64,000 bases of DNA from Candidatus Aminicenantes bacterium (GTDB lineage Bacteria > Acidobacteriota > Aminicenantia > Aminicenantales > JAFGBC01): assembly GCA_963702005.1 (NCBI GenBank), contig OY969696.1, forward strand, positions 1,056,001 to 1,120,000, given 5' to 3'. This document shows, piece by piece, positions 40,870-64,000 of this stretch. The notes beneath the pieces were generated by a model. The model saw only the letters and a program-made list of their open reading frames with translations, had not been told where the DNA came from and made no database searches. The position numbers were made by a program, and so were the translations under genes. Every line of letters begins with the position of its first letter. Positions within the stretch are counted from its first letter, which is position 1.

Positions 40870-41004
40870 ATAAATTTCTGAATATTTCGTTATCGATACT
40901 TGATAAATGAAATTTTAGGTTGTTTTTAGAACGGTGATTATAATTAAACAAATAAAATATTCCGTTTTTTGAGCGGCAATTAATAAATAGTTGAAAAATG
41001 GGCC

Positions 41005-41853: not shown

Positions 41854-41859
41854 TAAGCA

Positions 41860-42290: not shown

Positions 42291-42348
42291 AAGCTCCGAT
42301 TGATAAGGAAATGGCCATATCTGTCAACCGAAGTCAAGATTTTCAGAC

Positions 42349-44179: not shown

Positions 44180-44183
44180 GATC

Positions 44184-44819
44184 ATGAAATCAAAATCAGT
44201 GGTGATTATCGGTGCCGGCGGGCATGCCAAGGTCGTAATAGATACCTTAACAAGCGCAGGATACAATGTTTCCGCAATCTATGATGATGATCCAAAGAAG
44301 CAGGGAACTCGTTTCCTCGACATTCCTATTCAAGGCCCAATTAATGAGGCATTCATAAAATCGAAAGGCTCAGAGCCTGCTGTAATCGGGATAGGTGATA
44401 ACTTAGTCCGCAAAAAAATCGCCGAGCGATTGCCGGGCATGAAATGGGCAACCGCCGTTCACCCGTATTCCTACGTGGCCTCCTCGGCAATAATAGGCCC
44501 CGGATCGGTGGTGTTTGCTGGGGCGATATTACAGCCCTATTGTGAAATTGGATCCCACTGCATCATCAATACGGGAGCCATGGTCGATCATGATTGCTTG
44601 ATCGGTGATTTCGTTCATATTGCGCCGGGGAACAGGATCGCCGGAAATGTTACTTTGGGCGCAGGTGTTTTTTTAGGAATCGGCTGTTCTGTAATTCCCG
44701 GCATTAAAGTAGGAGAGTGGACAGTGGTGGGGGCCGGGGCTGCGGTCGTCCGGGATATCCCTGCAAAAGTAACCGCGATTGGCGTTCCGGCCAGAGTAAC
44801 AAAGAGCCATGATAGATAA
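44184..44819 (+). CDS. pglD: UDP-amino-sugar N-acetyltransferase (PglD/NeuD family)
   Basis: IGAGGHAKV, GIGDN and NTGAMVDHDC motifs, hexapeptide repeats. Confidence 0.82.
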   Translation: MKSKSVVIIGAGGHAKVVIDTLTSAGYNVSAIYDDDPKKQGTRFLDIPIQGPINEAFIKSKGSEPAVIGIGDNLVRKKIAERLPGMKWATAVHPYSYVASSAIIGPGSVVFAGAILQPYCEIGSHCIINTGAMVDHDCLIGDFVHIAPGNRIAGNVTLGAGVFLGIGCSVIPGIKVGEWTVVGAGAAVVRDIPAKVTAIGVPARVTKSHDR

Positions 44820-45957
44820 GATAAAGCGGATCTATCTTTCTCCGCCTCACTTGGGGGGGCAAGAGGAGGACTTTGTCAAAGATGCCTTCGCGAGCAACTG
44901 GATCGCACCCTTGGGGCCTCAAGTGGACGCTTTCGAGAGGGAGGTTGCCCAAAAGGTGGGAGCCGCTGGAGCCCTCGCGCTGTCTTCTGGAACCGCGGCT
45001 ATGCACTTGGCGCTCAGGTATATCGGCATCGGGCCGGGGGACGTCGTTTTTTCTTCAAGCCTTACATTCATCGGGAGCTGCAACCCGGTCCTCTACCAGG
45101 GCGGAACCCTTGTCTTTATCGATTCGGAGCCAGGGACCTGGAACATGTCTCCGGCTGCACTGGCAAAAGCCGTTGCCGAGGCGGAGAAGACGAATAATCT
45201 TCCCAAAGCCGTTATAGTGACTAATCTTTACGGCCAGAGCGCGGATTATGACTCGATCAAGGCGGTCTGCGAACCAAAGGGCGTCCCGGTGATCGAGGAT
45301 GCGGCCGAATCGATTGGAGCGACCTATAGAGGGAAGAGTAGCGGGACGGCTGGAGATTTGGGAATATACTCCTTCAACGGGAATAAAATCCTGACGACCT
45401 CCGGGGGCGGGATGCTCGTGGCCCATGATGTTGAAGTCTTGGCCAAGGTCCGCTTTTGGGCCACCCAGGCGAGAGACCGCGCGCGGCATTATGAACACAG
45501 CGAGCTCGGTTACAACTACCGGATGAGCAATATCCTGGCCGCGATCGGCCGCGGGCAACTCCGGGTCCTGGAGGAAAGGATCAAGAGGAAAAAAGAGATC
45601 TATTCCTTCTATAAAAGCGCGCTTTCCGACATCGAGGAGATCTCGTTGATGCCGATCGCGGATTACGGCAAGCCGAATTATTGGCTCACGGTTATAACCA
45701 TCGCGGCTGGAAGCCGCATCCGGCCGGACGATATCATGAACTCTCTCGAGGCCGAGAATATAGAATCCCGGCCCGTCTGGAAGCCCATGCACCTTCAGCC
45801 GCTGTATAAAGAGAGTAAATACTTCGCCCACGATGGGAACGTGAGCGTGTCGGACGATATATTTTTCCGAGGTGTCTGCCTGCCGTCCGGGACGGCCTTG
45901 ACGGACCTCGAGCTTGGATATATCGTTGCTCTGATCAGGAAGGCCTTCGGGAAATAA
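44809..45957 (+). CDS. pglE: PLP-dependent UDP-4-keto-sugar aminotransferase (PglE/EpsN, DegT family)
   Basis: SNWIAPLGP, SSGTAAMH, EDAAES, SFNGNKILTTSGGG and GYNYRMSN motifs. Confidence 0.85.
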   Translation: MIDKIKRIYLSPPHLGGQEEDFVKDAFASNWIAPLGPQVDAFEREVAQKVGAAGALALSSGTAAMHLALRYIGIGPGDVVFSSSLTFIGSCNPVLYQGGTLVFIDSEPGTWNMSPAALAKAVAEAEKTNNLPKAVIVTNLYGQSADYDSIKAVCEPKGVPVIEDAAESIGATYRGKSSGTAGDLGIYSFNGNKILTTSGGGMLVAHDVEVLAKVRFWATQARDRARHYEHSELGYNYRMSNILAAIGRGQLRVLEERIKRKKEIYSFYKSALSDIEEISLMPIADYGKPNYWLTVITIAAGSRIRPDDIMNSLEAENIESRPVWKPMHLQPLYKESKYFAHDGNVSVSDDIFFRGVCLPSGTALTDLELGYIVALIRKAFGK

Positions 45958-45982
45958 TCAAAGGGGAGAGCAGGAGGGGGAG

Positions 45983-47860
45983 ATGAGGATCGACAAATAT
46001 TTGCTGACGAGAACCAATCAGCTCATCATCGATATCTTGATTTTCGGGATATCGTTCCTGGCGGCATTCCTGATTCGGTTCGAGGGATTTCCAAGTATTT
46101 ATCCGTTACATGGGCTGATCCTGATCTGTCCCTACGTCGTCCTGGCCAGGCTGATCCTTTTCGCCCTCTTCAGGGTCTATTCGATCACCTGGCGTTTTAT
46201 TTCCATCTACGACGCGCGCAAAATCGTCGGCGCCATCCTCCCCGGCACGGCTGCTATGCTTTTAGGCAGGATATTTATTCCGGGAAAAATCTCTTACCTG
46301 AAGCTTCCCTACGGCGTCATCACGATCGAATTCCTCCTTGTCGTCCTGGGGACTTTAGGCGTGAGGCTCCTTCGCCGGGTGACGCACGAGGCGTCGAGAC
46401 GTGAGCACTACGGGATGGAAAAAGGCCAGGGCTCAAAAGCGAGGGTGCTCCTGATCGGAGCGGGAGACGCCGGGAACATGGTGGCTAAAGAGCTGAACAC
46501 CCGGCTGGACCTGGGCTACAAGGTTGTCGGATTCGTGGACGACGATCCCGCCAAGTTCAACCAATCCATCCAGGGCGTCAAGGTCCTGGGCAGCACCTCC
46601 CGGCTTCCGGAATTGAGCCGGGAACACCAAGTCCAGGAAGCCATCATCACGATCGCCAACGCTACATCGAAGGACATCCGGCGGATCGTCGATATCTGCG
46701 GGGACACCGGGCTCAAGGTCAAGATTATTCCCGGCCTCTTCGAAATGCTGGACGACCGGATCCGGATCACCAAGATCAGGGAGATCGACATCAACGACCT
46801 TCTGGGCCGGAGCCAGGTGGATTTCAGCAATCATCAGGAGACGGTCCTGGAAAAGTATCGAGGGAAGCGCATCTTGATTACGGGCGCCGGGGGGTCGATC
46901 GGCTCCGAGCTCTGCCGCCAGCTCGTCAAGTTGTGGCCGCGCGAGCTCATTCTGGTCGATAAAGACGAAAACAGCATCTACGAGATCGACCGGGAGTTGG
47001 CCCTTCAGGAATCCGGGATCAGCGCCGCCCCCATCATCACCAACATCAAGAATTACGATAGGATGAAGCATCTCTTCAGCAAGTATCGTCCCGAGGTTGT
47101 CTTCCACGCGGCCGCCCACAAGCATGTGCCCCTGATGGAGCTGAACGTCAGCGAGGCCGTCCTCAACAATGTCGCGGGAACGAAGAACGTCGTCGAGCTG
47201 GCGATCGCCCATGGGGTGGAGAGGTTTGTCTACATCTCGACCGACAAGGCCATCAACCCGACGAGCGTCATGGGTGCGACCAAGCGGATCGGCGAGGTCC
47301 TGATCCAGGGGCTGGCCGCGGGCGGCGGGACCAAGTTCTCCTGCGTCCGGTTCGGAAACGTCATCGGGAGCCGGGGGAGTGTGGTGCCCCTCTTCCAGAA
47401 GCAGATCGACAGGGGCGGGCCGGTCACGATCACCCACCCGGACATCCGCCGCTATTTCATGTCCATCGCCGAGGCCGTCCAGCTCATCATCCAGGCCGGT
47501 ACGCTCGGGGACAAGGGCGAGATCTTCGTCCTCGACATGGGGAAGCCGATTAGGATCCTGGACCTGGCCAAGGACCTGATTCGCTTGTCCGGGTATTCCG
47601 AGAGCGACATCGAGATCAAGTTCGTGGGGCTCCGGCCGGGCGAAAAACTCTACGAGGAGACGCTCGTGGACGAGGAAAGGGACAAGGCGACCGAGTTCAG
47701 GAAAATATTCATTGCACCGCCGGCCGGACAAACCCCCGAGAAATTCGAGAGCCGGGTTGCGGAGCTATTCGCGGCCGCACAAGGTGGAAAAGACGAGGAA
47801 GTCATCCGCCGTTTGAAGGCGATGGACTTGGGCTACAATGGTGAAGCTCGGCCCCATTAG
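45983..47860 (+). CDS. pglF: Membrane-bound UDP-GlcNAc 4,6-dehydratase (PglF/CapD/WbpM)
   Basis: Four N-terminal TMs, GAGGSIGSE, HAAAHKHVP, STDKA, MGATK, RFGNV.GSRGSV and RPGEKLYEE motifs. Confidence 0.88.
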   Translation: MRIDKYLLTRTNQLIIDILIFGISFLAAFLIRFEGFPSIYPLHGLILICPYVVLARLILFALFRVYSITWRFISIYDARKIVGAILPGTAAMLLGRIFIPGKISYLKLPYGVITIEFLLVVLGTLGVRLLRRVTHEASRREHYGMEKGQGSKARVLLIGAGDAGNMVAKELNTRLDLGYKVVGFVDDDPAKFNQSIQGVKVLGSTSRLPELSREHQVQEAIITIANATSKDIRRIVDICGDTGLKVKIIPGLFEMLDDRIRITKIREIDINDLLGRSQVDFSNHQETVLEKYRGKRILITGAGGSIGSELCRQLVKLWPRELILVDKDENSIYEIDRELALQESGISAAPIITNIKNYDRMKHLFSKYRPEVVFHAAAHKHVPLMELNVSEAVLNNVAGTKNVVELAIAHGVERFVYISTDKAINPTSVMGATKRIGEVLIQGLAAGGGTKFSCVRFGNVIGSRGSVVPLFQKQIDRGGPVTITHPDIRRYFMSIAEAVQLIIQAGTLGDKGEIFVLDMGKPIRILDLAKDLIRLSGYSESDIEIKFVGLRPGEKLYEETLVDEERDKATEFRKIFIAPPAGQTPEKFESRVAELFAAAQGGKDEEVIRRLKAMDLGYNGEARPH

Positions 47861-47880
47861 CGGGTCGGTATCGGACTCAA

Positions 47881-49122
47881 ATGCGCAAGAAAAGAGCCGG
47901 ACTCATGCTTGTTGTCCTGGGCTTCGCCCTGCTTCCGGGCCGGCTTTATCCGATCACCTGGAAGGGCCTCGTGTTGAGGCAGCAGGCGCAGGCGGCTTCC
48001 TGGCGCTTCGGCCCGTTCCATATCCAACCCTCGCTCGTCATCAGGAACGCCGGCTACGATTCGAACGTCTATTACCGTCCGGACGCCGTGGCCGATTATT
48101 GGCTGACGGCCGGCCCCGCGTTCGATATTTTTCTTCCCGTTAAGAAGAAGATCCTATTCCAGGTCTATGCCTCGCCCCAGTACGTCTATTTCAAGGAGAC
48201 GGTCCGGGAGAGGACCTGGAATTACTATACGAACGGATGGGTCCATTTGCTGCTCAACAAGTTCCTGGTCTCGGCCGGGGCAGGCTGGAGCGATGCCCGC
48301 GAGCGGTTCAGCACCGAGATCGATATCCGCCCCAGGCGCCGGGTCGAGGATTTCCAGGCCTCCATTCTCTGGCAGAAATCCCGGAAATTCTCCTTCGCCC
48401 TGGCCGGTCGGAGCTCAACCCACCGCTACGAGAGCGTCGAGTATTCCGGCTTCAATATCAGCCAGCGTCTGGACAGGACCGAGCAAACGGCGAGCGCATT
48501 CATCTATTACCAGGCGACCTCGAAAATCAGGGCGTTCGCCGAGGGCGAGTACGGAACCTACGATTTCAGGGATCCGGCGAGTGGGCGGGATTCGGAAAGC
48601 CGGGCCGTCTACGGCGGCTTCGAGCTGTCGTCTTGGAGCCGGCTCCGGGGAACGGTGCGGTTCGGCTATAAGAAGTTCAGGACGCGGGACGCGGGCCTGC
48701 CGGACTTCGAGGGGTTTGTCGGAGAGGCGAGCCTCACCCTCAGAGTCCTTCGTGTGCTGAATGTTCGGTGCTCCTACCGCCGGGACGTAAGCTTTTCCAT
48801 CTGGTTCGAGAACCCGTTCTATATCGAGAAAAGTGCGGGGGGCGGCGCCTCGTTCTATATCATGAAGCGCAAAGTCCGCCTGGACTACGATTACAGCAAG
48901 GGACACAATAGCTATCCTCTCCCGGAGGGGATGACCGCGCCGGGCGCCGGGGTTTCTAAAAGGCTGGACGACATGACGGTCCATTCCGTCGGCCTTTATA
49001 TCAGGGTCCAGGAGGGCGTGGGCCTCGGGGTCACGGCCGGGCGGCTGAAGCGTTCGATCAATGTCCTTGGATGGACGGCGGACCGGGATTTCGTCGGGCT
49101 TAACCTGACATATGATTTTTGA
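47881..49122 (+). CDS. Polysaccharide-export-associated outer-membrane beta-barrel
   Basis: Signal peptide, GYDSNV motif, amphipathic strands and C-terminal LTYDF. Directly upstream of the OPX gene. Confidence 0.72.
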   Translation: MRKKRAGLMLVVLGFALLPGRLYPITWKGLVLRQQAQAASWRFGPFHIQPSLVIRNAGYDSNVYYRPDAVADYWLTAGPAFDIFLPVKKKILFQVYASPQYVYFKETVRERTWNYYTNGWVHLLLNKFLVSAGAGWSDARERFSTEIDIRPRRRVEDFQASILWQKSRKFSFALAGRSSTHRYESVEYSGFNISQRLDRTEQTASAFIYYQATSKIRAFAEGEYGTYDFRDPASGRDSESRAVYGGFELSSWSRLRGTVRFGYKKFRTRDAGLPDFEGFVGEASLTLRVLRVLNVRCSYRRDVSFSIWFENPFYIEKSAGGGASFYIMKRKVRLDYDYSKGHNSYPLPEGMTAPGAGVSKRLDDMTVHSVGLYIRVQEGVGLGVTAGRLKRSINVLGWTADRDFVGLNLTYDF

Positions 49123-49143
49123 CCCTAAATACATGCAAGGCAG

Positions 49144-50046
49144 GTGGTCATGAGAGGTTTTAAAGGACGGATTATCATCGGAATTGCGGCATTCTTCCTC
49201 GCGTCCGGGCTCGCTTCGGCTCTCGCGGCCTCCCAGCAGGCCGAACCTCCGGCCCCAACCGGACAGGAGCGGGATTTCTTCATCCGGGAATACATCATCG
49301 GCCCCGGGGACCTGCTCGAGCTCAAGGTCTTCGAATTGCCCGACCTCAACCAGAAAGTCCGCGTCTCCCAGGACGGGTCCATCACCCTGCCCCTCTTGGG
49401 GAGCGTCAAGGTCGGAGGGATGACCAAGGACGGGGTCGAGGCCCAGTTGGCCAAGCTTCTTGAAGCGCGATTCCTCAAGAACGCCCAGGTCTCGGTCTTC
49501 ATCCTCGAATACCAGAGCAACCGGATCGCCGTCATCGGCGCCGTCGAGAAGCCGGGGATGTACGAAATCGTCGGACGCAAGTCGCTGATCCAGATGCTTT
49601 CCCAGGCCGGCGGGCTCAAGGACAGCGCGGCCAACGATATTTATGTCCTCCGGGAAGGCAAGGACGGGGTCACCGCCTCCCTGGCCATCGACCTCGAGGA
49701 CCTGATCATCAACGGCAACCAGCAGCTCAACATTCCGCTCCAGCCCAACGACGTCGTCAACGTCCCCGTCGACCGGATGATCACGGTCTACGTCTTCGGC
49801 GAGGTCAAGCAGCCGGGCGCCATCCAGGTCAAGATGTCGAGAAAGATCACCCTCCTCCAGGCCATCGCCCAAGCCGGGGGGACGACCGAGGACGCCGCCC
49901 GGGGGAGCATCATCGTCACCCGCAAGGACAAGTCCGGGAAGGAGACCAAGATCAAGGCCAACCTCAAGGACATCATCAAGGGGAAAAAGCCCAATATTCC
50001 CCTGCTCGAGGGCGACGTCGTCTATGTGCCCACCAGCATTTTCTGA
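49144..50046 (+). CDS. wza: OPX/Wza-family polysaccharide export protein (Poly_export + 2 SLBB)
   Basis: YIIGPGDLL, DGSITLPLLG, GAVEKPG and GEVKQPG motifs. Ends at EGDVVYVPTSIF. Confidence 0.88.
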   Translation: MVMRGFKGRIIIGIAAFFLASGLASALAASQQAEPPAPTGQERDFFIREYIIGPGDLLELKVFELPDLNQKVRVSQDGSITLPLLGSVKVGGMTKDGVEAQLAKLLEARFLKNAQVSVFILEYQSNRIAVIGAVEKPGMYEIVGRKSLIQMLSQAGGLKDSAANDIYVLREGKDGVTASLAIDLEDLIINGNQQLNIPLQPNDVVNVPVDRMITVYVFGEVKQPGAIQVKMSRKITLLQAIAQAGGTTEDAARGSIIVTRKDKSGKETKIKANLKDIIKGKKPNIPLLEGDVVYVPTSIF

Positions 50047-50058
50047 GAGAGGATCGCG

Positions 50059-52296
50059 ATGAACGGAACGAGCGCCAACAACAACGAGTTCGTGGACCTT
50101 CCCCCTCAGCAGGAGATCAACCTCCGCGAATACTGGGACATTCTCTGGCGGCGGCGCTGGCTGATCGGCGCCTTCGCCCTAGCCTTGATTTTCATCGTCG
50201 GCGTCTGGACGTTCACGGCCCGTCCGACCTACACGGCCAAAGGCACCCTCCTCATCGAGAAGGAGGCCAACATCCTGACCTTCGAGGAGATCTTCCAGAT
50301 CGAAAGCTTCCGCGACGATTACTACCAGACCCAGTACAAGCTCCTCCAAAGCCGGGCTCTGGCCGCGGAAACGGTGAACCGCCTCAATCTCTTCGAGAAC
50401 AAGGAGTTCGTCGGGAACGGCCGGAACGGGGCTAAATCCGGCAAGGATGATCCGGTCCTGAGGCAAAAACTCATAAACGAATTCCTGAGCCGGCTCCAGA
50501 TCAAGCCCCTCCGTCTGACGCGCCTGGTCGAGGTCTCGTTCAGCTCCCGGAGCCCCAAGCTGGCCGCCGACGGCGTCAACACGCTTTTCGACGCCTTCAT
50601 TGATATGAACGTCAACGCCAAGTACGAGGCGACCGAGCAGGCCACCGAGTTCCTGACCCAGCAGATCAACGGACTGCGGACCGAAATCGCAGCCAAGGAG
50701 CGCGAGCTCCAATCGTACGGCGCCGAGAAGAACATCATCGCCCTGAGCGACACCGAAACGACGATCGTCGACAAGCTGGGAGAGCTCAACAAAGCGCTGA
50801 CCGAAGCCCAGATCGACCGGCTCCGCAAGGAGGCGAACTACAACGAAATCCGGAACGCCTCGGCCGACTATATCCCCGAGGCCGTCAACAATCCCCTGAT
50901 CCAAAGGCTTCGCGAGGACTACGTCCGGATGAGCCGCGAGTACTCCAAGAAGTCCGAGACCTTCCGGCCCGAATACCCGGAAATGGTCCGCCTCAAGGCC
51001 GAGCTCGACAGCGCCCGCGAGCTCTTGGCCAACGAGACCAACAACTTGATCAAAGCGGCCTACTCGGAATTCCAGGGCGCGCAAAAGAGAGAGATGTCCT
51101 TGCAGAGCGTGTTCGACAACCAGAAGAAGGAGGCCCTTCAGCTGAATTCGAACGCCATCCTCTATAACGGGCTGAAAATCGAGCTCGACAACAAGAAGAG
51201 CCTCATCGAAACGCTCCTCAAACGGGAGAGCGAGACGGGAGTCTCGGCCCGCCTGCGCGGGCTGAGGACGTCCAACATCCGGATCGTGGACCGCGCCGAC
51301 AAGCCGCTCCAGCCCTCGAGCCCGAAAAAGAGGATGAATATGGTCCTGGCTCTCCTGTTCGGGCTTTTCGGGGGCGTCGGCCTGGCCCTGCTCCTCGATC
51401 ACCTGGACGATACGATCAAGGGAGCCCAGGATATCGAAAAGAACGCCCAGCTGCCCACGCTCGGGATCGTGCCTACGTTCAGCCTCGATGAAGGAAAATC
51501 CGGGTACGGGTACGGACGGAAGAAAAAAATAAAGGAAGGTCGCGGCGTTGAGGACGATCGGGGAGCGAAGGAGAAGTCCGCCGAGCCGCCGGTCAAGTCC
51601 ATCGAGCTCATCACTCACCTCGCGCCCAAGTCCAATTTTTCCGAGAGCTATCGCTCCATCCGGACGTCGCTCTTGCTCTCGGGCTCCGCGCCCGACCTGC
51701 GGGCCATAATCGTGACCTCGCCCCTGCCGTCGGAGGGCAAGACCGTGACCGTCTCCAACCTGGCCGTGACGCTGGCCCAGACCGGGAAGCGCGTCCTCGT
51801 CATCGACGCCGACCTCCGCAAGCCGCGCATGCACCGGATCTTCCGGATGAGAAACCTGACCGGCCTGACGAATTTTCTGACGACCGGGGTCGAGCTCAAG
51901 GAGCTCGTCAAGGCCACCGAGATCCCCAACCTTTATCTCATCACCTCGGGGCCGGTGCCGCCCAACCCGGCCGAGCTTCTGGGCTCGGACAAGATGTTCA
52001 AGCTCCTCGAAACCCTGAAGGGGAATTTCGCCTACATCTTGATCGATACGCCTCCCATCCTGGCCGTGACCGACGCCCTCGTCCTCGGGCCGGCCATCGA
52101 CGGCTTCGTCATCATCGTTTGGGGGGATAAGACTCCGCGTGACGCCCTTAAGCAGGCCCGAGACACCTTGGAAATGACCAAGATCAAAACCCTGGGCGTC
52201 ATCATCAACAACCTCAACGTTCACAAGCACGGGTCATATTACAAGAGCTATTACTACAAGTACCAGCATTACTACGAGGAGGGTCAGAAGTCTTGA
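50059..52296 (+). CDS. wzc: Polysaccharide co-polymerase / BY-kinase
   Basis: Two TMs flanking a coiled coil, Walker A PSEGKT, IDADLRKP, IDTPP and Tyr-cluster tail YYKSYYYKYQHYY. Confidence 0.92.
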   Translation: MNGTSANNNEFVDLPPQQEINLREYWDILWRRRWLIGAFALALIFIVGVWTFTARPTYTAKGTLLIEKEANILTFEEIFQIESFRDDYYQTQYKLLQSRALAAETVNRLNLFENKEFVGNGRNGAKSGKDDPVLRQKLINEFLSRLQIKPLRLTRLVEVSFSSRSPKLAADGVNTLFDAFIDMNVNAKYEATEQATEFLTQQINGLRTEIAAKERELQSYGAEKNIIALSDTETTIVDKLGELNKALTEAQIDRLRKEANYNEIRNASADYIPEAVNNPLIQRLREDYVRMSREYSKKSETFRPEYPEMVRLKAELDSARELLANETNNLIKAAYSEFQGAQKREMSLQSVFDNQKKEALQLNSNAILYNGLKIELDNKKSLIETLLKRESETGVSARLRGLRTSNIRIVDRADKPLQPSSPKKRMNMVLALLFGLFGGVGLALLLDHLDDTIKGAQDIEKNAQLPTLGIVPTFSLDEGKSGYGYGRKKKIKEGRGVEDDRGAKEKSAEPPVKSIELITHLAPKSNFSESYRSIRTSLLLSGSAPDLRAIIVTSPLPSEGKTVTVSNLAVTLAQTGKRVLVIDADLRKPRMHRIFRMRNLTGLTNFLTTGVELKELVKATEIPNLYLITSGPVPPNPAELLGSDKMFKLLETLKGNFAYILIDTPPILAVTDALVLGPAIDGFVIIVWGDKTPRDALKQARDTLEMTKIKTLGVIINNLNVHKHGSYYKSYYYKYQHYYEEGQKS

Positions 52297-53072
52297 TCGA
52301 CCTTCATACCCATCTCCTGCCGGACTGGGATGACGGGGCCGGAAGCTGGGAGGAATTCCGGGCCATGGCCGGGATCGCGCACGCCGACGGGATCGGCACG
52401 ATCGTCCTGACGCCGCACGTCTTCCGGCTCAGCAAACACGCCGACGATTTGAATGTTCTCGAGAGCCGGTTCGCCGAGGTCGCCGCGGTAGAGTCGAAAA
52501 CGGCCGTGGCTTTCCTGCGCGGGGCCGAGATCTTCCTCCATCCCGGCGTCGCCGAGACCGCGAAAACATGGAACTTGACGATCAACGCTTCGAACTATTT
52601 CTTTCTCGAATTTCCGGAGGATGCCGTTCCCCCCGGCGTTCGGGAGTTCTTTTTCGAGATCATGCTCGGCGGCTTGACGCCGATCATCAGCCATCCCGAG
52701 CGGAACGACGTCTTCCGGGAGCGGCCGGACCTGCTCTATGATCTCATCCGGACGGGCGCCCTGGCCCAGGTCACGGCTAAGAGCATCACGGGCGGATTCG
52801 GCGCGGAGACGAAGAAAACGGCGCGGCTCTTCCTGAAACACAACCTGGTTCAGGTCATCGCCTCGGACGCGCACGACCCGGAGCGCCGGCCGCCCCGGTT
52901 GGCCGCGGCGGTCGAGGAAGCGGGCGCGATCGTCGGCCGGGAGAAAGCGCTGGCCATGGTGACCGATATTCCGCGGGCCATCCTGGACAATGCTCCCATC
53001 CCGGACTGGGGCGTGCCCGAGAATCCGGCCCGGAAGAGGAAATGGACCCTTCGTCTTCCGAAATTCGCATGA
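52293..53072 (+). CDS. PHP-family tyrosine phosphatase (CpsB/CapC/YwqE)
   Basis: IDLHTHLLP..DDG, TPH, SHPERN and ASDAH motifs. Confidence 0.9.
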   Translation: MIDLHTHLLPDWDDGAGSWEEFRAMAGIAHADGIGTIVLTPHVFRLSKHADDLNVLESRFAEVAAVESKTAVAFLRGAEIFLHPGVAETAKTWNLTINASNYFFLEFPEDAVPPGVREFFFEIMLGGLTPIISHPERNDVFRERPDLLYDLIRTGALAQVTAKSITGGFGAETKKTARLFLKHNLVQVIASDAHDPERRPPRLAAAVEEAGAIVGREKALAMVTDIPRAILDNAPIPDWGVPENPARKRKWTLRLPKFA

Positions 53073-54508
53073 GAAAATTCGTTTTTTGGGGAGTTTGCGC
53101 CGTCGCGGCCTTCCTGCCCATTCCCTTCGGCTCCATGGAGGAATGGGCCGTATTCGCCTTCGAGGCCGCGGTCGCGCTCCTTTTCGCCGCGTTTTGGCTG
53201 GGCGTGAAGGGCGGCGAATGCGGCGGGGAGAGCGGCGCCAAGGTTCTTCCCTGTTTCCTGAAAGCGTTTCTGGCCGCGTTTTTCGTTCTATCGGCGATTT
53301 CGATCATCCCCCTTCCGGCTGCCGTCGTCGGCGCGATCTCTCCCCGGGCGGCGGCTTTAAGGTCCGGCCTGGCCTCGCTCGGCTTGGGAGCCTCCGGGGG
53401 CGGCGGCTGGATGACTCTTTCGCTGGCGCCGACGGTTTCTCTGTACACTCTGGTCCGATACGCGGCCTACGGGATGTTCGCTTTCCTGGTCTTTCGCTCC
53501 GTGAAGACGCGGAAAGAGGTCGAGATCTTCCTTTGGGTCCTGGCGGCGACGGCGGTCTTCGAGGCAACCTACGGCATCGCCCAGGTTTTCGGCGGCACGG
53601 AAAGGATTTTTTCCTACCAGAAAAAATGGGACCTCGGCTCGGTGACCGGAACCTACATCAACCGGAACCACCTGGCCGGCTTCCTGGAAATGGTCTTTCC
53701 GCTCGTCCTCGGCCTCCTGCTGGCCAAGGCGGATTTCTTCGCCATGGGCCGGCGGGCGACGTTCAAGGAGAGGATCCTGTGGTTCGGCCAGGAGAAGCTC
53801 CAGAAAACATTCATGGTCGGGTTGGTCGCGGCCGTCCTCGGCTTGGGGCTCATTTTCACCAAATCCCGTTCCGGCGTCCTCATCTTCCTCATCACGGTCT
53901 TCTTGATGATGATCGCGATCTCGGCCGCGGGGGACACCGCCAGAGGCGGTGCGGGGCGGCGCGGCCATCGACTGATCCGGATGATCGGGCTGGCCGTCGT
54001 TTTCGCGGCCGTCCTCATCGGCGTCCGTCCCGTCATCGAACGATTCACCAGGGAGAAAGTGACGTTCGAGGCGGGCCGGCCCGTCTACTTCCGGAACGCG
54101 GCGAGGATCATCCGGGACTACCCTCTGGCCGGGACGGGCTCCGGGACGTTCGTTTACGCCTACCAGAGGTACGAGGAAAAGGACAGCCGGGTCATCGTCG
54201 ATCACGCCCACAACGATTATCTGGAGATCATGGCCGAGAACGGGATTCCGGCGGGATCGGCGTTCTGGGCGTTTATGTTCGGAGTCTTCGGCCTCGGGCT
54301 TGCACGTTGGCTTAAGCGGCGGGATCCCTTCGTCAAGGGGGTCGGGCTGGGCTGCCTGGGCGGCTTGGCGGCCATCTTCATCCACAGCCTGGCCGATTTC
54401 AACCTCCAGATCACCGCGAATGGGGCCGTCTTCTGTGCCCTTGCCGCGCTACTCCTACGCGTGACGGGCCTCGAAAGCCGACGGTCCGGGAGGGATTATG
54501 TCCGCTGA
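53069..54508 (+). CDS. O-antigen ligase / O-oligosaccharyltransferase family (Wzy_C) membrane protein
   Basis: GTYINRNHLAG, TKSRSG, G.G.GTF, HAHNDYLE and HSLADFNL motifs. ATGA overlap with the phosphatase stop. Confidence 0.82.
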   Translation: MRKFVFWGVCAVAAFLPIPFGSMEEWAVFAFEAAVALLFAAFWLGVKGGECGGESGAKVLPCFLKAFLAAFFVLSAISIIPLPAAVVGAISPRAAALRSGLASLGLGASGGGGWMTLSLAPTVSLYTLVRYAAYGMFAFLVFRSVKTRKEVEIFLWVLAATAVFEATYGIAQVFGGTERIFSYQKKWDLGSVTGTYINRNHLAGFLEMVFPLVLGLLLAKADFFAMGRRATFKERILWFGQEKLQKTFMVGLVAAVLGLGLIFTKSRSGVLIFLITVFLMMIAISAAGDTARGGAGRRGHRLIRMIGLAVVFAAVLIGVRPVIERFTREKVTFEAGRPVYFRNAARIIRDYPLAGTGSGTFVYAYQRYEEKDSRVIVDHAHNDYLEIMAENGIPAGSAFWAFMFGVFGLGLARWLKRRDPFVKGVGLGCLGGLAAIFIHSLADFNLQITANGAVFCALAALLLRVTGLESRRSGRDYVR

Positions 54509-57375: not shown

Positions 57376-58851
57376 TCATCGTCCCTGGAACAGGGCCCAG
57401 GGATGAGCCGGCATGTCCTTTAGATAAGGAAGCTGCCAGGCCCATTCTGAATGAGCCCCGGCGAAGGCCGCGGCGTCGAAGTCCCGTCCGCAGGGATGGC
57501 CCATCCGGGCCCAGATCTTGAATTCGCGGGCCAGGGCGGCCGAAGTCGCCTTTCCTTGGACGGCCCCTCCGGGATAGAAGGGAGCCCAGGAAAATTCGGG
57601 AAGGCCCTTGGAATCGGAGTCGCTATGGCCGCAGAGGGTATTGGCGTTGTCGGCCGGCGCGCCGGTCGCGGCGTCGATGTGGTCGCCCAGGAAGGCCATG
57701 GCTTTCGTGACGTCGATCGTTCCCTTGTTGGCCTCCATCAGGGATTTCCAGCGGGCCTTCCGGACCAGGACCGACTGGCGCGTGTTCTTGGGGTCGAAGG
57801 TCGTCTCCTCGGCGATAACCTTCTCGTCGAGCGGAAAGTTGGCGCCGATAAAATACCCGTCCTTCGTCCTCCAGACCCGCTGATTCTTAAGGCCGAGCTC
57901 GAGCCGGGCGATCTCGCCGGCGTTGAGGTCGGCGACGAGCCAGTCGTTGGCGTAGGCGCCGTTGTTGTCGGCCGTCATGATCCGGACGAAATCGTCGATC
58001 GAGGCTCCATATTGGGCGGCCCGACGGGCGCGGACGAACTCGGGGGTGCCGTCCTCCCGGAAACCCTTGTACTGGGACATGGTCGTCTCGGAGTAGAGGA
58101 GGCCGGCGCCGTTGACGACGAAATCGTCTCCGCTGTGGATGAAGCCGGGCATGGCGTCCATCAGGATGCGCCGCCCCCGCTCGGGGACGATGTCCAAGAT
58201 CGCGTTCCAGCGCTCGCCCAGGATGTATTCGGTCCAGTTGTTATGGGCGATGACCGCGCCTCCGTCTTTTGTGTAGCTGCCGACGGCGACAAAGGCGCTG
58301 CAGTAGGCGGGGGCCTTGTTGTCGCCCGCGCCCGATTTGGCCTTGGCCTCGAGATAGGGAACGTAATACCAGGCCAGTTCGATCCAGCCGTTGAGGGCGG
58401 CGATGTCGATCCGGTCGTAAGTCAGCTCGGGACAGCGGGCGCGGACGCCCTCGGCGATGCCCTCGATCTCATCCCTGTATTCGGGGTCGAGCTTGGGCCA
58501 GAACATCCGCTCGGCGGCCTCGCGGAAGAAAGCCCAGTCGTGCTTGACCGAAATCGGGAAATAAAAGGCCATCGTCTTGATGATGTCGTCGATCTCCGAG
58601 GCCAGGTACCAGCCGTGCTGGAAGCCGATTTCGCCCGGAGCGCCCTCCAGGTGAACGAAAGCCCAGCCGTCGCGGTCCTCCCGGAAGGAGCCTTTAAGGC
58701 GCGGATCGGATCCGGCGGACGCTGCGGTCGCGGCCGATGAAGGGGACGATTCCTTCTTCTCGGCGCAGGCGGCGATCAGGAATAGCGTCGCGATGAGGGC
58801 AAAAAAGGATGCGACTCGAAAGACGGGGCGGCGGCGGATAAAATCGATCAT
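57376..58851 (-). CDS. Ntn-hydrolase lipoprotein (peptidase C45 / phospholipase B-like)
   Basis: LIAAC lipobox, GFQHG, CSAF (putative N-terminal nucleophile), AHNNW and NNGAYANDW motifs. GGAGGAG RBS before ATG 58851. Confidence 0.8.
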   Translation of the reverse strand: MIDFIRRRPVFRVASFFALIATLFLIAACAEKKESSPSSAATAASAGSDPRLKGSFREDRDGWAFVHLEGAPGEIGFQHGWYLASEIDDIIKTMAFYFPISVKHDWAFFREAAERMFWPKLDPEYRDEIEGIAEGVRARCPELTYDRIDIAALNGWIELAWYYVPYLEAKAKSGAGDNKAPAYCSAFVAVGSYTKDGGAVIAHNNWTEYILGERWNAILDIVPERGRRILMDAMPGFIHSGDDFVVNGAGLLYSETTMSQYKGFREDGTPEFVRARRAAQYGASIDDFVRIMTADNNGAYANDWLVADLNAGEIARLELGLKNQRVWRTKDGYFIGANFPLDEKVIAEETTFDPKNTRQSVLVRKARWKSLMEANKGTIDVTKAMAFLGDHIDAATGAPADNANTLCGHSDSDSKGLPEFSWAPFYPGGAVQGKATSAALAREFKIWARMGHPCGRDFDAAAFAGAHSEWAWQLPYLKDMPAHPWALFQGR

Positions 58852-58946
58852 GGCTCCTCCTCGACGAGGGATGGAAAGACAGTAAAACACATCCGGCGCG
58901 GCTGTCAAGGTCGAAGTCCCGCGTCCTTGCTTCGCTCGGGCACGCC

Positions 58947-59029
58947 TTGACCCGTTCGCCGACGCCACCCAGCCTTGCAGTACTCAGACTAAGCCGAAAA
59001 CGGCTTAGTCTGGGTGTCGATGATTTGAC
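58947..59029 (+). mobile_element. TGAC-bounded palindromic element family B, copy 3 (short variant)
   Basis: TTGAC-CCGTTCGCCGACGCCACCCAGCCTTGCAGTAC-hairpin-GTGTCGATGAT-TTGAC, with repeats 78 bp apart. Confidence 0.8.
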
Positions 59030-59054
59030 AAGCCGGCTCGCGCCGCGGTATTCT
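59025..59054 (+). promoter_or_regulatory. sigma70-like promoter whose -35 box is the right junction of element B copy 3
   Basis: TTGACA-N18-TATTCT. Confidence 0.6.
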
Positions 59055-59148
59055 CAACCGATATTGGATGTATGGATGTTTCAGGAGCGCCTACGGCCGG
59101 AGCGCAACGCGGCCCGGGGATGAGCGAGGAGCGTTAAGGGAGGTCATC

Positions 59149-61413
59149 ATGGATCAACACCGAAAGCGGTTTCTTGGATTGTTTCTGATCGGATTCATTC
59201 TTTCCGCAGCCGTCGCTCGGCCAGACCAGGCCCTGACCTGGAGCCGGATCGGCAAAGGCGGCCTGGACGGACCGTATAACCCGCTTCAGGAGGATCTGAA
59301 CGCCGCCTGCCTGTTCGGCGGCAAGCTCTGCGTCGGAACCTGGGGCGGCCAGATTTGGAGCTATGACGGAAGCGAGTGGGTTCTGATCCACAAGCCCAAG
59401 CCGGGCAAGAACCTCATCCGGGAAGTGCAATCCCTGGCCGTCCTCGGGGATTACCTCTATGCCGGCATGTACCTGAGCAATCAAACCTGCCAGGTTTGGC
59501 GGACCAGCGGCACGGGGAAGCTTCCCTATCGATGGACGAAAGTCAGCGGCGCCGCGAATATCGAAAATTCCGAGGCTCATGAAGCGCCTTCAATGGCTGT
59601 CGTCAAAGGGGTTCTTTATGTCGGTACAGAGGGCTATTACGGCTGCCAGGTCTGGTCGTACAACGGCAGCGCTTGGACCGAGGTTGTCGGGCAAGGTTCC
59701 GCCGGCTCGGCCACCGGTCCCGGCTTCGGCGACAAAGCGAATTACGTGGCGAGCTCCATGACTTCATCCGCGTCGGGCGATCTTTATGTCGGCACGGGCC
59801 GGCATGACGGAGGCGAGGTCTGGCGGCTGAACAGCTCGGGCTGGGCCATGGTCAACAAGCCCGGCTTCGGGGTCTCTTCTAATTTCCGTATCCAAACCCT
59901 GGCCTTCTTCAACGACAGCCTCTATGGGGGCACCATCAATGATGAGAAGGGCGCCCAGGTCTGGAAATACGTCGGGCCCGGCCCGTCGAATTGGAAGGCG
60001 GTCGGGCTCAACGGAATGGGCGATGTCAAGAACAGGCTCGTCGCCTCCGCGGCCGTCTTCGGGGACCCCGCCCGACTGTATGTGATTACGGATAACGGAG
60101 AACGAGGCTGTCAGGTTTTGAGGACGAACGGGAAGACCTGGGAGAAGGCCAACGCGAACGGATTTGGAGAGGGTCCGACCAATTGCATAGGCGGGTTCCT
60201 GGCCGTCTTCAGGGGGAAACTCACCGCCGGCTTGGACAGCGATTTCGGCGGCCGGGTCTACGCGACGGCCGGCGGCGCCAAGGTCCCCTTCGCCTGGACG
60301 CAGGTGAACGACTCCGGTTTCACCCGGAACGACAACGAACTGTTCGGGGCCGCGGCCTTCTTTGGCGGAAAGCTTTATGTCGGGACCCATAACTCCCTGG
60401 GCTGCGAAGTCTGGCGTTACGAAGGGAACGGCTGGACCCAGGTCGCGACGGGCGGGTTCGGCGATCCCTACAACGATAGCGTGTGGTCCATGGCCGTCGC
60501 CAACGGCTATCTCTACGCCGGCGCCGAGAATTGGGAGACGGGGGCCGAGATCTGGCGCTACGACGGGTCGAAATGGACCCAGGCCAACAAGAGCGGGTTC
60601 GGGGACGCCTCGTCGGGAATGGCCAGCGCCATGGCCGTCCACCAGAACAAGCTCTACGTGGGGACGCGGAACTATGACCACGGTGCTACGATTTGGCGTT
60701 GCGACGGTCTCAAAACATCCCAATGGACGAAGGTCAACACGAACGGCTTCGGCGTTTTGGCGACGATCGGAATCCAGTCCTTGGCCGTCTTCAGTAATAA
60801 GCTCTATGCCGGGACCCTGGACGAGAGCGGCCGCTGCCGGGTCTGGAGGTACGACGGCCCCGGGCCGTCCGGGTGGACGGCGGCGAACGAGGCGGGGTTC
60901 GGCGTCGATAGCAACTATGCCGCGTCCGGCCTGGCCGTTTATACGGGGGCGCTCTATGCGGAGACTTGGACCGAGGGCAACGGCGGTTGCGAGGTGTGGC
61001 GCTACTCCGGCGCCGGTACGGCCTGGAGCCAGGTCAACGTCGGCGGCTTCGGGAAAGCCGCCAATGAATATGCGGATTCCATGATCGTCTTCAAAAATCT
61101 CATGTATGTCGGCACCTGGAACGAGTCGAACGGGGGCGAGATCTGGTCTTACGACGGCAGCGTCTGGAGCCAGGTCAATAAATCCGGATTCGGGGCCAAC
61201 ACCAACATCGGGATCGAATCGATCGCCAGCGATGGGACCGATCTTTACGCCGGGACCGAGAATGACTTCACCGGCGGCGAGGTCTGGACGACCGGGACCG
61301 GGAGCGCGAGCCCCCCGATCTTCCGGGCGGCTCCGTTCCCGTCGATCCCGCGAGTGCATCGGAGGCATCCGAGAGAAGCCTCCCAGCCGAGGCTTCATTC
61401 CCGGACGCGGTAG
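59149..61413 (+). CDS. Secreted beta-propeller repeat protein
   Basis: Signal peptide and about 14 repeats of W.QVN..GFG...N....MAVF..KLYVGT.N...G.EVWRYDG. GGGAGG RBS. Confidence 0.8.
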   Translation: MDQHRKRFLGLFLIGFILSAAVARPDQALTWSRIGKGGLDGPYNPLQEDLNAACLFGGKLCVGTWGGQIWSYDGSEWVLIHKPKPGKNLIREVQSLAVLGDYLYAGMYLSNQTCQVWRTSGTGKLPYRWTKVSGAANIENSEAHEAPSMAVVKGVLYVGTEGYYGCQVWSYNGSAWTEVVGQGSAGSATGPGFGDKANYVASSMTSSASGDLYVGTGRHDGGEVWRLNSSGWAMVNKPGFGVSSNFRIQTLAFFNDSLYGGTINDEKGAQVWKYVGPGPSNWKAVGLNGMGDVKNRLVASAAVFGDPARLYVITDNGERGCQVLRTNGKTWEKANANGFGEGPTNCIGGFLAVFRGKLTAGLDSDFGGRVYATAGGAKVPFAWTQVNDSGFTRNDNELFGAAAFFGGKLYVGTHNSLGCEVWRYEGNGWTQVATGGFGDPYNDSVWSMAVANGYLYAGAENWETGAEIWRYDGSKWTQANKSGFGDASSGMASAMAVHQNKLYVGTRNYDHGATIWRCDGLKTSQWTKVNTNGFGVLATIGIQSLAVFSNKLYAGTLDESGRCRVWRYDGPGPSGWTAANEAGFGVDSNYAASGLAVYTGALYAETWTEGNGGCEVWRYSGAGTAWSQVNVGGFGKAANEYADSMIVFKNLMYVGTWNESNGGEIWSYDGSVWSQVNKSGFGANTNIGIESIASDGTDLYAGTENDFTGGEVWTTGTGSASPPIFRAAPFPSIPRVHRRHPREASQPRLHSRTR

Positions 61414-61498
61414 CCCGGACTTTCCGAGGGCGCCTGACAGCCGGGGCGGCGTCCGCCAAGCCGGCCGCCGGAGCGCCGCGCCGTCTGTGAGGGTCGCC

Positions 61499-61528
61499 TT
61501 GACAAGTCGCCGGACATGGCGTTATCTT
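61499..61528 (+). promoter_or_regulatory. sigma70-like promoter (element-free counterpart of 59025..59054)
   Basis: cgccTTGACAag-N-TATCTT with an 18-bp spacer. Confidence 0.6.
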
Positions 61529-61618
61529 CGGCGTATAGAATTATCATAATCCCCGGATAGGCGCCGAGATCCGCGAATTTTTGTCGTGGCCCGGGCAAGG
61601 GGGAGGAAGGGAGATTTC

Positions 61619-63898
61619 GTGAACAAGCATGGCAAGGCGTTATTGGCGTCTTTGTTTGTCGCGGCGATTTTGACCGCGGCGGCCTTCGCCGACGAGGCCC
61701 TGACCTGGAGCCGGATCGGTAAAGGCGGCCTGGACGGGCCGTATAATTATCTCCAGTATGGCCTCAACGCCCCCTGCGTTTTCAAGGGGGCTCTTTATGT
61801 CGGCACCGGCGGCGGCATGTCGTTCGGCGGCCAAATCTGGCGCTATGACGGGCACGAGTGGGTCATGGTCCATAAGCCCAAGCCGGGCCATACGCGAATT
61901 GACGCGGTGACGACTCTGGCCGTCCTCGGCGATTATCTCTATGGGGGCATGTCTGTCAACGACGGGACCTGCGAGGTCTGGCGTACCGACGGGACGGGGA
62001 AGCCCCCCTATCGCTGGACCAAGATCAGCGCGCCGGCGAACATCAGCCAGCAATATACGTACATGGTGAGTTCGATGACCGTCGTCAACGGATATCTGTA
62101 CTGCGGCACCTGGAACAACGTGAAGGCTTGTCAGGTCTGGAAATACAGCGGAAGCGCCTGGACCCAGGTCGTCGGGCAAGGCCCCTCGGGATCGCCCACC
62201 GGCCCGGGCTTCGGCAATAAGAATAACTACGTGGCGCGGTCCATGACCTCTTCGGCCTCGGGAGATCTTTATGTCGGGACGGGCAACAGCGGGGGCGGCG
62301 AGGTCTGGCGGCTGACGAGCTCCGGCTGGACCAAGCTCAACAAGCCCGGATTCGGCGCGTCCAAGAACTCCTACATCAGCGTCCTTATCTTCTTCAAGAA
62401 CAGCCTCTATGCGGGCACCCAGAATTACACTAAGGGCGCCCAGGTCTGGAAATATTTGGGGCCGGGCCCCGCGAACTGGAAGGCGATCGGGCTCAACGGG
62501 ATGGGCGACGCCAACAATTATAATATCGGCGCGGCGGCGGTCTTCGGAAACCCGGGCTGGCTGTATATCATCACCGCGAACTATGAAAACGGCTGCCAGG
62601 TCCTGAGGACCAACGGAACGAAATGGGAGAAGGCCAACGCAAACGGGTTCGGGGAGGGGAAGACCAACGGGGATGGCGGCGCCCTGGCTGTCTTTGACGG
62701 CAAGCTCTATGCCGGATTGAACGGCGATTTCGGCAGCCGGGTCTACGCGACCGCGGGCGGCGCCAAGGTGCCGTTCGCCTGGACGCTGACGAATGATTCC
62801 GGATTCAGCCTGAACGACAACGAAAGGATCGGCTGCTCGGCGTTCTTCGGCGGAAAGCTCTACGTCGGGACCTATAACGGCCTGGGCTGCGAAATCTGGC
62901 GCTATGAGGGGAACGCCTGGACCCAGGTCGTCTCGGGCGGGTTTGGAGATCCTAATAATTATGAAGCCGAGTCCATGGCCGTCGCGGACGGCTATCTTTA
63001 CGTCGGGACCGGCAACTGGCTGACCGGCGCCGAGGTCTGGCGCTATGACGGGTCGAAGTGGACCCAGGCCAACAAGGACGGATTCGGAGACGCGACATCG
63101 GGTGAAGCCGCGGCAATGATCGTTCACCAGGACAAACTCTACGTTGGCACGCAGAGCTATAACACCAAGGCCAAGGTTTGGAGATGCGACGGCCTCAAGA
63201 CGACCCAATGGACGAAGGTCAACACCAACGGCTTCGGCATGGCCACCACGGTGGGCGCGATATCGTTCGCCGTCTTAAACAACAAGCTTTACGCCGGGAC
63301 CTACGATATGAACGATCCCTGCCACGCTTGGAGGTATGACGGCCCCGGGCCGTCGAACTGGACGCTGGTCAGCGCGGAGGGGTTCGGAAACAAGGCAAAC
63401 CACGGAGTGGACGCGCTGGCCGTCTATAAGGACGCCCTCTACGCGAGCGTCTACTCCGCCGATCAGACAGGCTGCCAAATCTGGCGCTATTCGGGCAACG
63501 GAACGAGCTGGAGCCGGGTCAACGTCAGCGGTTTCGGCAAGGCCAACAACGGTATGGCGGACGCCATGATCGTCTTTAAAAATCTTCTGTACGTCGGCAC
63601 CTGGAACGGGGTGAACGGGGGAGAAATCTGGTCCTACGACGGCGGCGTCTGGAGCCAGGCCAATAAGAGCGGCTTCGGGACCAATAATAATTACGGAGTC
63701 CTCACTCTGGCGGGCGACGGCGCCGATCTTTACGCCGGCACCGTGAACGACATGACCGGCGGCGAGGTCTGGACGACCGGGGCGGGGAGCGACAGCCCCC
63801 TGATCCTCCGGGCCAACCCATTCCCGTCGTTCCCGAAAGCTCATCGGAAGTACCCGAAGGAAGCCTACCAGTCGAGATTTCATTCCCGGACGCGATAG
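61619..63898 (+). CDS. Secreted beta-propeller repeat protein (tandem paralogue of 59149..61413)
   Basis: Colinear with the upstream paralogue from ALTWSRIGKGGLDGPYN to HSRTR. GTG start after GGGAG. Confidence 0.8.
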   Translation: MNKHGKALLASLFVAAILTAAAFADEALTWSRIGKGGLDGPYNYLQYGLNAPCVFKGALYVGTGGGMSFGGQIWRYDGHEWVMVHKPKPGHTRIDAVTTLAVLGDYLYGGMSVNDGTCEVWRTDGTGKPPYRWTKISAPANISQQYTYMVSSMTVVNGYLYCGTWNNVKACQVWKYSGSAWTQVVGQGPSGSPTGPGFGNKNNYVARSMTSSASGDLYVGTGNSGGGEVWRLTSSGWTKLNKPGFGASKNSYISVLIFFKNSLYAGTQNYTKGAQVWKYLGPGPANWKAIGLNGMGDANNYNIGAAAVFGNPGWLYIITANYENGCQVLRTNGTKWEKANANGFGEGKTNGDGGALAVFDGKLYAGLNGDFGSRVYATAGGAKVPFAWTLTNDSGFSLNDNERIGCSAFFGGKLYVGTYNGLGCEIWRYEGNAWTQVVSGGFGDPNNYEAESMAVADGYLYVGTGNWLTGAEVWRYDGSKWTQANKDGFGDATSGEAAAMIVHQDKLYVGTQSYNTKAKVWRCDGLKTTQWTKVNTNGFGMATTVGAISFAVLNNKLYAGTYDMNDPCHAWRYDGPGPSNWTLVSAEGFGNKANHGVDALAVYKDALYASVYSADQTGCQIWRYSGNGTSWSRVNVSGFGKANNGMADAMIVFKNLLYVGTWNGVNGGEIWSYDGGVWSQANKSGFGTNNNYGVLTLAGDGADLYAGTVNDMTGGEVWTTGAGSDSPLILRANPFPSFPKAHRKYPKEAYQSRFHSRTR

Positions 63899-63918: not shown

Positions 63919-64000
63919 TTGACCCGTTCGCCGACGCCAAGCCCCGCCTTTCAAGGCGGGGATGAGAGCGAGGCTCAGGGTTAATCATGAACAAGCCCCG
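63919..64000 (+). mobile_element. TGAC-bounded palindromic element family B, copy 4 (truncated by window end)
   Basis: TTGAC-CCGTTCGCCGACGCCAAGCCCCGCCTTTCAAGGCGGGG...GGCTCAGGGTTAATCATGAACAAGCCCCG. Confidence 0.8.

Follow-up and report, generated by a model that had tools for sequence, protein, structure and literature searches.

How can a mobile element enter the −35 box of a bacterial promoter and yet leave that promoter readable? The question is raised by a stretch of 64,000 nucleotides (the window) from Candidatus Aminicenantes bacterium (Acidobacteriota; Aminicenantia; Aminicenantales; JAFGBC01), covering positions 1,056,001 to 1,120,000 of contig OY969696.1 (assembly GCA_963702005.1). 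It contains four copies of a short repeat, here called element B, beginning TGAC-CCGTTCGCCGACGC at 26064 (+), 32618 (−), 58948 (+) and 63920 (+); copy 4, the last of them, is truncated by the window end and has its right junction outside the window. An initial annotation had proposed that copy 3 is inserted in a −35 box whose empty counterpart survives in a paralogous promoter, and the coordinates and motifs it gave are all present in the sequence. The best overall explanation, which we hold to be reasonably probable though well short of assured, is that B is a mini-element of the IS200/IS605 type (IS, insertion sequence) mobilized by the transposase TnpA acting in trans, that its target and its terminus are the same word, TTGAC, and that its pattern at promoters would arise from sequence preference combined with selection. 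The features that bear on copy 3, numbered from the first letter of the window, are as follows.

57376-58908, − strand: divergent gene with a Phospholip_B match at 57376-58851 and a separate TTGACA (58908-58903) lying ~40 nt leftward of where copy 3 is inserted
58947-58951, + strand: TTGAC pentamer (TGAC at 58948-58951) that adjoins copy 3 on the left, the target and the −35 core as it was before insertion
58952-59029, + strand: copy 3 of element B, 78 nt long, with an internal deletion
58982-59015, no strand assigned: nested palindrome within copy 3, of a type found inside many other copies
59025-59054, + strand: regenerated sigma70-type promoter-like site TTGACA-N18-TATTCT (TTGACA at 59025-59030, TATTCT at 59049-59054)
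59149-61413, + strand: paralogue 1, a beta-propeller protein of 754 aa that matches Kelch weakly
61495-61528, + strand: uninterrupted promoter-like site before paralogue 2, the empty-site homologue of copy 3 (TTGACA at 61499-61504, N18, TATCTT at 61523-61528)
61619-63898, + strand: paralogue 2, likewise a beta-propeller protein, of 759 aa and with 67% identity to paralogue 1

Copy 3 is made up of a left end, one half of that end's hairpin, the nested palindrome and a degenerate right end finishing in TTGAC, and the first five bases of the regenerated site are derived from the element, the remainder from the host. What did the site look like before it was filled? When copy 3 was removed in silico, its flanks matched the paralogue-2 site best among 678 TTGAC sites (window plus element loci), with 26/50 bases identical as against 23 for the next-best site, and the paralogue-2 site alone among the 678 shared exact runs of four bases on the left and three on the right; the 12-mer CGCCTTGACAAG at 61495-61506 of that promoter occurs a single time in the 59 sequences examined. 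The proposed pairing of copy 3 with an empty site ahead of paralogue 2 thus stands. The upstream regions of both paralogues, aligned with copy 3 removed, also score 84 versus 53+-6 for 500 base shuffles (0/500 as high), a value that mostly reflects the general homology of the two regions, because the filled region scored 81 with copy 3 left in. It had further been supposed that insertion replaces the upstream region; at copy 3, by contrast, the upstream DNA was shifted by 78 nt and not removed, and the TTGACA of the divergent gene moved from ~40 to ~120 nt from the promoter-like −35. No terminator-like site was called at copy 3 or copy 4.

Does the coincidence of target, terminus and −35 core extend beyond this locus? 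A scan of a genome collection with the 18-nt left end, in which TGAC was part of the search pattern, yielded at least 110 loci (given L numbers below) and, with the window, at least 117 pattern matches; all counts are among the matches listed. About 51 of these 117 had neither hairpin nor right end and were discarded as chance matches, whereas 66 had one or the other, 64 of them distinct and 52 with both ends. At least 60 copies lie outside the window, in at least 10 genomes, eight titled Aminicenantes or Aminicenantia and two titled Eubacteriales, and the taxon-named homologues of a GNAT protein encoded in the window are likewise from Aminicenantes; 30 of the 60 come from a single genome, and the copies are therefore not independent samples. 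In the two genomes titled uncultured Eubacteriales (L015, L020, L029, L032, L062), the flanks look G+C-rich, as they do at Aminicenantes loci.

Element B is non-coding and measures 53-321 nt, with a modal length of 108 (15/52), a size range to which the entry of other small palindromic elements into its hairpins gives rise; three copies are single-hairpin forms of 53 nt. A T precedes TGAC at 58 of the 64 copies versus 77 of 206 intergenic TGAC sites, in agreement with the suggestion that the target is the −35 core, and the element's own end supplies TTGAC in 49 of the 52 complete copies, which bears out the companion claim that insertion regenerates the −35. The base after the right junction (+1) is A or T in 46/51. 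Five copies recovered by blast without the TGAC requirement follow TTGAC (twice), TCGAC, TTAAC and TTGGT. As read from the junctions, the element inserts 3′ of TTGAC, which remains on the left, its own last bases being TTGAC again. Because target and terminus are one word, TTGAC would be recreated before the right flank at every insertion, and because this word is the −35 core, a promoter that is hit would keep its −35, spacer and −10, at least as sequence.

One orthologous response-regulator promoter carries B in two diverged genomes (L066:3511-3670 and L072:3001-3133; protein identity 52-69%), where the right end is in both cases the rarer TTTGAC and the copy in L066, the second at that locus, is without the left hairpin module; this shared occupancy reflects either old retention or repeated hits. 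At L051:2983-3004 and in the right flank of L057, both from one genome, an 18-nt unit bounded by TTGAC stands beside B, and the right flank of L083 holds short TTGAC-ended pieces in tandem, which, like the 18-nt units, may be remnants or mini-units.

The other copies in the window occupy several kinds of site.

26064-26175, + strand: TGAC within the start codon of the GNAT gene (ATG 26063), then copy 1, 108 nt, 36 in-frame codons
32442-32471, − strand: right junction of copy 2, with a promoter-like TTGACA-N18-GATAAT oriented towards a TonB-receptor-like gene whose 5′ end is at 32220
32467-32619, − strand: copy 2, 148 nt (32614-32467), after target TTGAC (32619-32615)
61435-61438, + strand: empty TGAC in CTGAC context, not a −35 box; positional homologue of the copy-4 site
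63919-64000, + strand: directly past the paralogue-2 stop, target TTGAC (63919-63923) followed by copy 4 (63924 onward)

The promoter-like ending of copy 2, as first described, is seen in the sequence, the right end lying 246 nt ahead of the TonB-receptor-like gene, and promoter-like sites hold two of the four window copies, copy 1 being in a start codon and in no −35 box. The second filled and empty pair that had been put forward, copy 4 and the TGAC at 61435, holds up in position: each lies 16 nt past TAGCCCGG, with 8/16 spacer bases identical (by eye). It does not hold as a promoter pair, the empty site being CTGAC without a −10 box. At 25372-25431 there is also a possible fifth B-like unit, very degenerate, which adjoins a palindromic composite at 25264-25367 and finishes in the TTGACA of a TTGACA-N17-TATTCT site ahead of the gene at 25446.

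What kind of mobile DNA is element B? Each end bears a hairpin with an 8-bp stem and a TTCA loop, and terminal inverted repeats are absent. The hairpin positions are paired in 89% of cells, and 12-14 of 500 shuffles reach the same level for pairing and for covariation, a weak signal among related sequences. In its 20 nt the right hairpin agrees exactly with the hairpins at both ends of a TnpB element (L112, plasmid Rms149) and with one end of an IscB element (L113, Acidithiobacillus caldus), by blast matches to TnpB and IscB ends that are individually weak (E 0.06-2). At the ends of IS200/IS605 elements, guide and terminus follow a pairing rule. What determines cleavage, according to passages of PMC6006769 and PMC10055086, is a guide tetramer at the foot of the hairpin. 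The pairing rule fits all four IS605-family right ends compared (L112, L113, L115 and L117: GAAT/TCAA, CAAG/TGAC, and GAAG/TCAC twice), the IscB element L113 being the one that combines a CAAG guide with a TGAC terminus. In B, the right guide is CAAG in 31 of 46 recognisable right hairpins (TAAG in 5, other in 10), and a TGAC terminus is therefore what the pairing rule predicts; the hairpin stands 15 nt from the element end in 41/46. At the Rfam gathering threshold the window gave no match; at an E-value threshold there were sub-threshold matches only, the best to anti-hemB (E 0.0003, generic hairpins; L064), with nothing useful for copy 3. Among them was a match to HgcC (E 0.0012, L064), a family that includes an IS605 right-end-like (RE-like) UUCA tetraloop, as stated in part of PMC4615843.

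On these grounds B is probably a non-autonomous IS200/IS605 derivative resembling the palindrome-associated transposable elements (PATEs). It would consist of a left end fused to a right end, and a Y1 TnpA provided in trans would move it in single-stranded form. Why should such an arrangement be found in a gene-less element? An element that bore TnpB and whose terminus equalled its target would presumably cut its own right junction, and a shared target and terminus would therefore be easier for a gene-less derivative to maintain.

The property that would spare promoters also permits survival past TGA stops, in start codons, in frame within genes and in tandem at older ends. The 52 complete copies comprise 42 in intergenic DNA, five after a TGA stop and five in coding sequence, whereas 56 of 101 free TTGAC(A/T) sites are coding. 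All five coding copies (one weakly supported) have a length divisible by three versus 25/52 overall, and in most copies the 108-nt form stays open in the two top-strand frames where TGA is not read as a stop. The GNAT gene of the window (26063-27016) encodes 317 aa against a modal 281 aa in homologues starting MTIRTM, its 36-residue N-terminal extension being copy 1, and the insert of L021 corresponds to a gap of exactly 36 residues in 96 of 120 alignments with homologues. In-frame copies within genes or at their starts were seen in L021, L017, L064 and L073 (glycoside-hydrolase-like, large envelope protein, small hypothetical and glycosyltransferase, respectively), and copies lie directly past earlier right ends in L054 and L083. 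Positions at stops, at starts, in frame and in tandem are those of sequence-specific insertion filtered by selection.

Are promoters, then, sought out as such? Genes were called with a codon-usage caller trained on 21 window open reading frames (ORFs), with window positions 35100-44850 masked. The −10-like TAnnnT follows 16-18 nt past 20 of 51 right junctions, as against 48/1866 TGAC, 33/533 TTGAC and 6/456 coding TTGAC sites, and the spacer profile is sharply peaked at 17 (11) and 18 (8); the enrichment over TGAC sites foreseen by the initial annotation is thus present. Compared with intergenic TTGAC sites (27/77, p=0.71), the excess is small, ‘intergenic’ being approximate here and missed genes liable to dilute the background; with five junctions added and two background sites dropped, the figures become 25/56 versus 25/75 (p=0.21), and with +1 A/T required in both sets 25/51 versus 21/43 (p=1.0). 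On a graded −10 score, with the 10 coding or stop copies set aside, 32/46 copies scored versus 33/75 intergenic TTGAC sites (p=0.008) and versus 28/43 free sites matched for the +1 base (p=0.82). The idea of promoters being targeted in their own right is accordingly not borne out by these counts, the excess over intergenic TTGAC being gone once the +1 base is matched. About half to two-thirds of the non-coding copies likely occupy −35 boxes, to judge from the adjoining −10-like motifs, and their promoter share is that of free intergenic TTGAC(A/T), with neither purging nor a clear excess; promoter sites are not depleted among surviving copies, which is consistent with the low insertion cost originally suggested. 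At non-TTGAC targets no new promoter-like junction arose (0/5). Sequence-specific insertion plus purifying selection explains this pattern, promoter targeting not being needed: the promoter excess would come from a preference for TTGAC(A/T) and from the loss of harmful coding insertions. Blastn among the fetched loci, looking for filled and empty orthologous sites, yielded no empty sites, and the flanks of the homologue pairs L041/L051, L073/window and L054/L088 were unalignable.

Several observations weigh against the picture drawn so far. The hairpin-to-end distance of 15 nt compares with 8-10 nt in the four reference ends, and the left guide is CAAG in 5/64, TAAG in 22 (which needs a T-G wobble) and without AG in ~28 that still follow TTGAC. 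Searches of the 3-kb flanks, by tblastn with TnpB and IscB queries and by Pfam on 144 of ~164 short flanking ORFs, found no TnpA, TnpB or IscB, and Pfam gave no Y1, RAYT or GIY-YIG domain, the single mobile-element gene among the 144 being an IS481-like helix-turn-helix (HTH)/integrase gene nested in one right end; no transposase gene was found near H12, H81 or H93. The parent element was absent from plasmid and phage blastn, in which only the 20-25-nt hairpin matched, with weak E-values (viral and metagenome collections were unsearched). A 4-bp TGAC duplication and an element-encoded TGAC end look identical in sequence, B can also be folded into a tandem pair of long hairpins with TTRAC at their bounds, and the second L066 copy, noted above, is without the left hairpin module; this fold and this copy suggest that the base of B may be REP-like (REP, repetitive extragenic palindrome). 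Finally, +1 is A/T in 45/46 intergenic copies and in 2/5 coding copies, where 82% is expected under pure sequence preference (p=0.04), which hints at more than sequence preference.

Could the transposase nevertheless prefer TTGAC in working −35 boxes, through contact with RNA polymerase or sigma or through unwound DNA? True promoter targeting of this sort, for which TnGBS/ISLre2 offer a precedent by another route, has in its favour the +1 A/T bias against free intergenic TTGAC sites (45/46 versus 43/75, p=2e-7; coding copies 2/5), the graded −10 score above all intergenic TTGAC, a next gene on the same strand in 27/30 versus 55/75 (p=0.07) and the promoter filled at both L066 and L072. It nonetheless seems unlikely: the excess vanishes on matching the +1 base, +1 A/T is enriched even at junctions without TAnnnT (26/31 versus 22/50), 10 of 52 complete copies lie in coding sequence or stop codons, and survivors alone are observable. 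The +1 bias itself reflects either enzyme preference or promoter selection. A broader version, in which target and terminus converged on the −35 core, working promoters are favoured, dozens of promoters per genome are spared and upstream DNA is repeatedly swapped lineage-wide via nested palindromic modules, we likewise regard with doubt; if it were true, the often-missing left guide would imply non-canonical target capture, for instance by the right-end guide. Most improbable of all is that B is a domesticated regulatory cassette, retained by its hosts for hairpins that insulate promoters or take the place of upstream control, as the idea of rewiring would have it. Occupancy of the same promoter in genomes as diverged as those of L066 and L072 and the presence of about half of the non-coding copies at promoter-like sites would suit a cassette, but the neighbouring genes have no function in common, the copies are decaying and other elements have entered them, upstream A+T content, examined with UP elements in mind, is alike at inserted and free promoter-like sites (0.38 versus 0.36, p=0.45), and insertions at non-TTGAC sites gave promoter-like junctions in none of five cases.

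The nature of the element can be construed differently as well. B might be a REP/REPIN-like doublet, spread by RAYT or another HUH enzyme, in whose loops IS605-type hairpins were secondarily inserted. This would accommodate the two tandem long hairpins (bounded by TTGAC/TTAAC/TTGAC), the second L066 copy and the intragenic in-frame copies, which are also known for REPs and RPEs (in the part of PMC3733652 devoted to them), and REP-like class 3 enzymes do occur in Acidobacteria (a passage of PMC6006769). It is quite unlikely all the same, in that the hairpin feet read CAAG/TAAG or lack AG, with no GTAG/GTGG/CGTC tag, the orientation is fixed with a single target, the right guide and terminus follow the IS605 rule, and no RAYT was present in the 144 flanking ORFs (flanks only, not whole genomes). 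Very unlikely is an origin as a MITE (a miniature transposable element with inverted repeats) or IS110/IS1111-type derivative, its two TGAC copies being a target duplication or recombination core. TGAC is indeed directly repeated at both ends in 50/52 complete copies, and the left end weakly resembles the reverse complement of the right end; however, there are no terminal inverted repeats and the ends are not complementary, both ends carry IS605-type hairpins, and the two copies with deviant left sites (TTGGT, TTAAC) still end in TTGAC, a state that later mutation could mimic. A 5-bp target duplication is ruled out, the left and right −5 bases covarying in 0/5 copies.

How, then, does a PATE-like IS200/IS605 derivative compare with systems already described? 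Like PATEs, as portrayed in sections of PMC3119063, PMC4810608 and PMC10055086, B is short and non-coding, has subterminal hairpins without terminal inverted repeats and inserts in one orientation after a fixed motif of 4-5 nt; the 52-bp terminal-only PATE form parallels the 53-nt copies, and the attack of SMR-A on palindromes of Haloquadratum PATEs parallels the nesting in B hairpins (both in sections of PMC3119063). It differs in that its target-adjacent and transposon-end motifs (TAM and TEM) are both TTGAC, the −35 core, whereas those of ISGst differ, and in its bacterial Aminicenantes host and its often imperfect or missing left guide. The ends of IS605/IS1341 (TnpB) and ISC (IscB) elements (L112, L113, L115, L117) share with B an identical or near-identical 20-nt hairpin and the same guide/terminus rule, but B has no genes, and in the reference elements target and terminus differ; target rules for ISC (PMC4810608) and a proposal of TTGAC as a TnpB motif (PMC12415229) are given in parts of these sources. 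TnGBS/ISLre2/ISKra4 elements also insert in one orientation and leave sigma-A/70 promoters intact, with a proposed limit on fitness cost, yet they are DDE Mutator-like, have inverted repeats and insert 15-17 bp upstream of the −35 (according to part of PMC3942029), whereas B, without inverted repeats, has its junction inside the −35, which is rebuilt, and would not have to recognise a promoter. Correia (CREE) MITEs have TA/TATA target repeats that are −10-like, much as B's resemble a promoter hexamer, and the ends of some ISs contribute a −35 to a host −10 in fusion promoters (both in parts of PMC9330008); B instead restores an existing −35, forms no new hybrids (0/5) and would differ in transposition chemistry. 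REP/REPIN and RPE sequences, with REP families treated in part of PMC3733652, are likewise small, mostly intergenic palindromic repeats, some translated in frame (portions of PMC3733652 and PMC6006769), but B lacks the GTAG/CGTC tag and has a fixed target and orientation and an IS605-type right guide. The literature searched (limited, with few subscription journals and supplements excluded) contained no description of element B or of a strategy in which target, terminus and −35 are one. Judged on sequence, what appears new is a mobile element that lands inside the −35 and rebuilds it; the kind of mobile DNA is already known.

Element B also shares its surroundings with other small elements. 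The composite at 25264-25367 is a stand-alone palindromic element flanked by TA, and in L014, L061 and L088 the whole of it, or the inner part alone, has entered B at the central TA; it looks like a TA-duplicating MITE. A second small element, which follows TTCA/TCA and ends in TTCA, sits in the left-hairpin loop of B in L106, L088, L061, L013 and L007 and stands alone in L008, L045 and L062; it is possibly another mini-element whose target equals its terminus. At L060:3053-4150 the IS481-like element, which has TGT...ACA ends and encodes an HTH and an integrase core, lies in a B right end, and the promoter-like junction persists beyond it. The window itself holds tandem paralogue pairs at 1-3501 (SBBP-repeat proteins), 12805-20027 (Ser/Thr kinase-TPR proteins) and 59149-63898 (Kelch-like propellers), the last pair at least having had its upstream regions duplicated together with the genes, and a polysaccharide biosynthesis/export cluster at 35400-54500, the first part of which (~35-45 kb) has atypical codon usage.

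What would it mean for a genome to host such an element? DDE elements that insert upstream of promoters already provide examples of promoter-sparing insertion; B would be a natural case of a mobile element rendered nearly harmless by sequence alone, its target, its terminus and the −35 core being the same. Filled and empty promoter pairs, such as those at 59025 and 61499, make the cost and effect of upstream displacement directly testable. In this uncultured lineage, copies of B may serve to mark promoters and true start codons, and they would account for spurious 36-residue inserts in its proteins.

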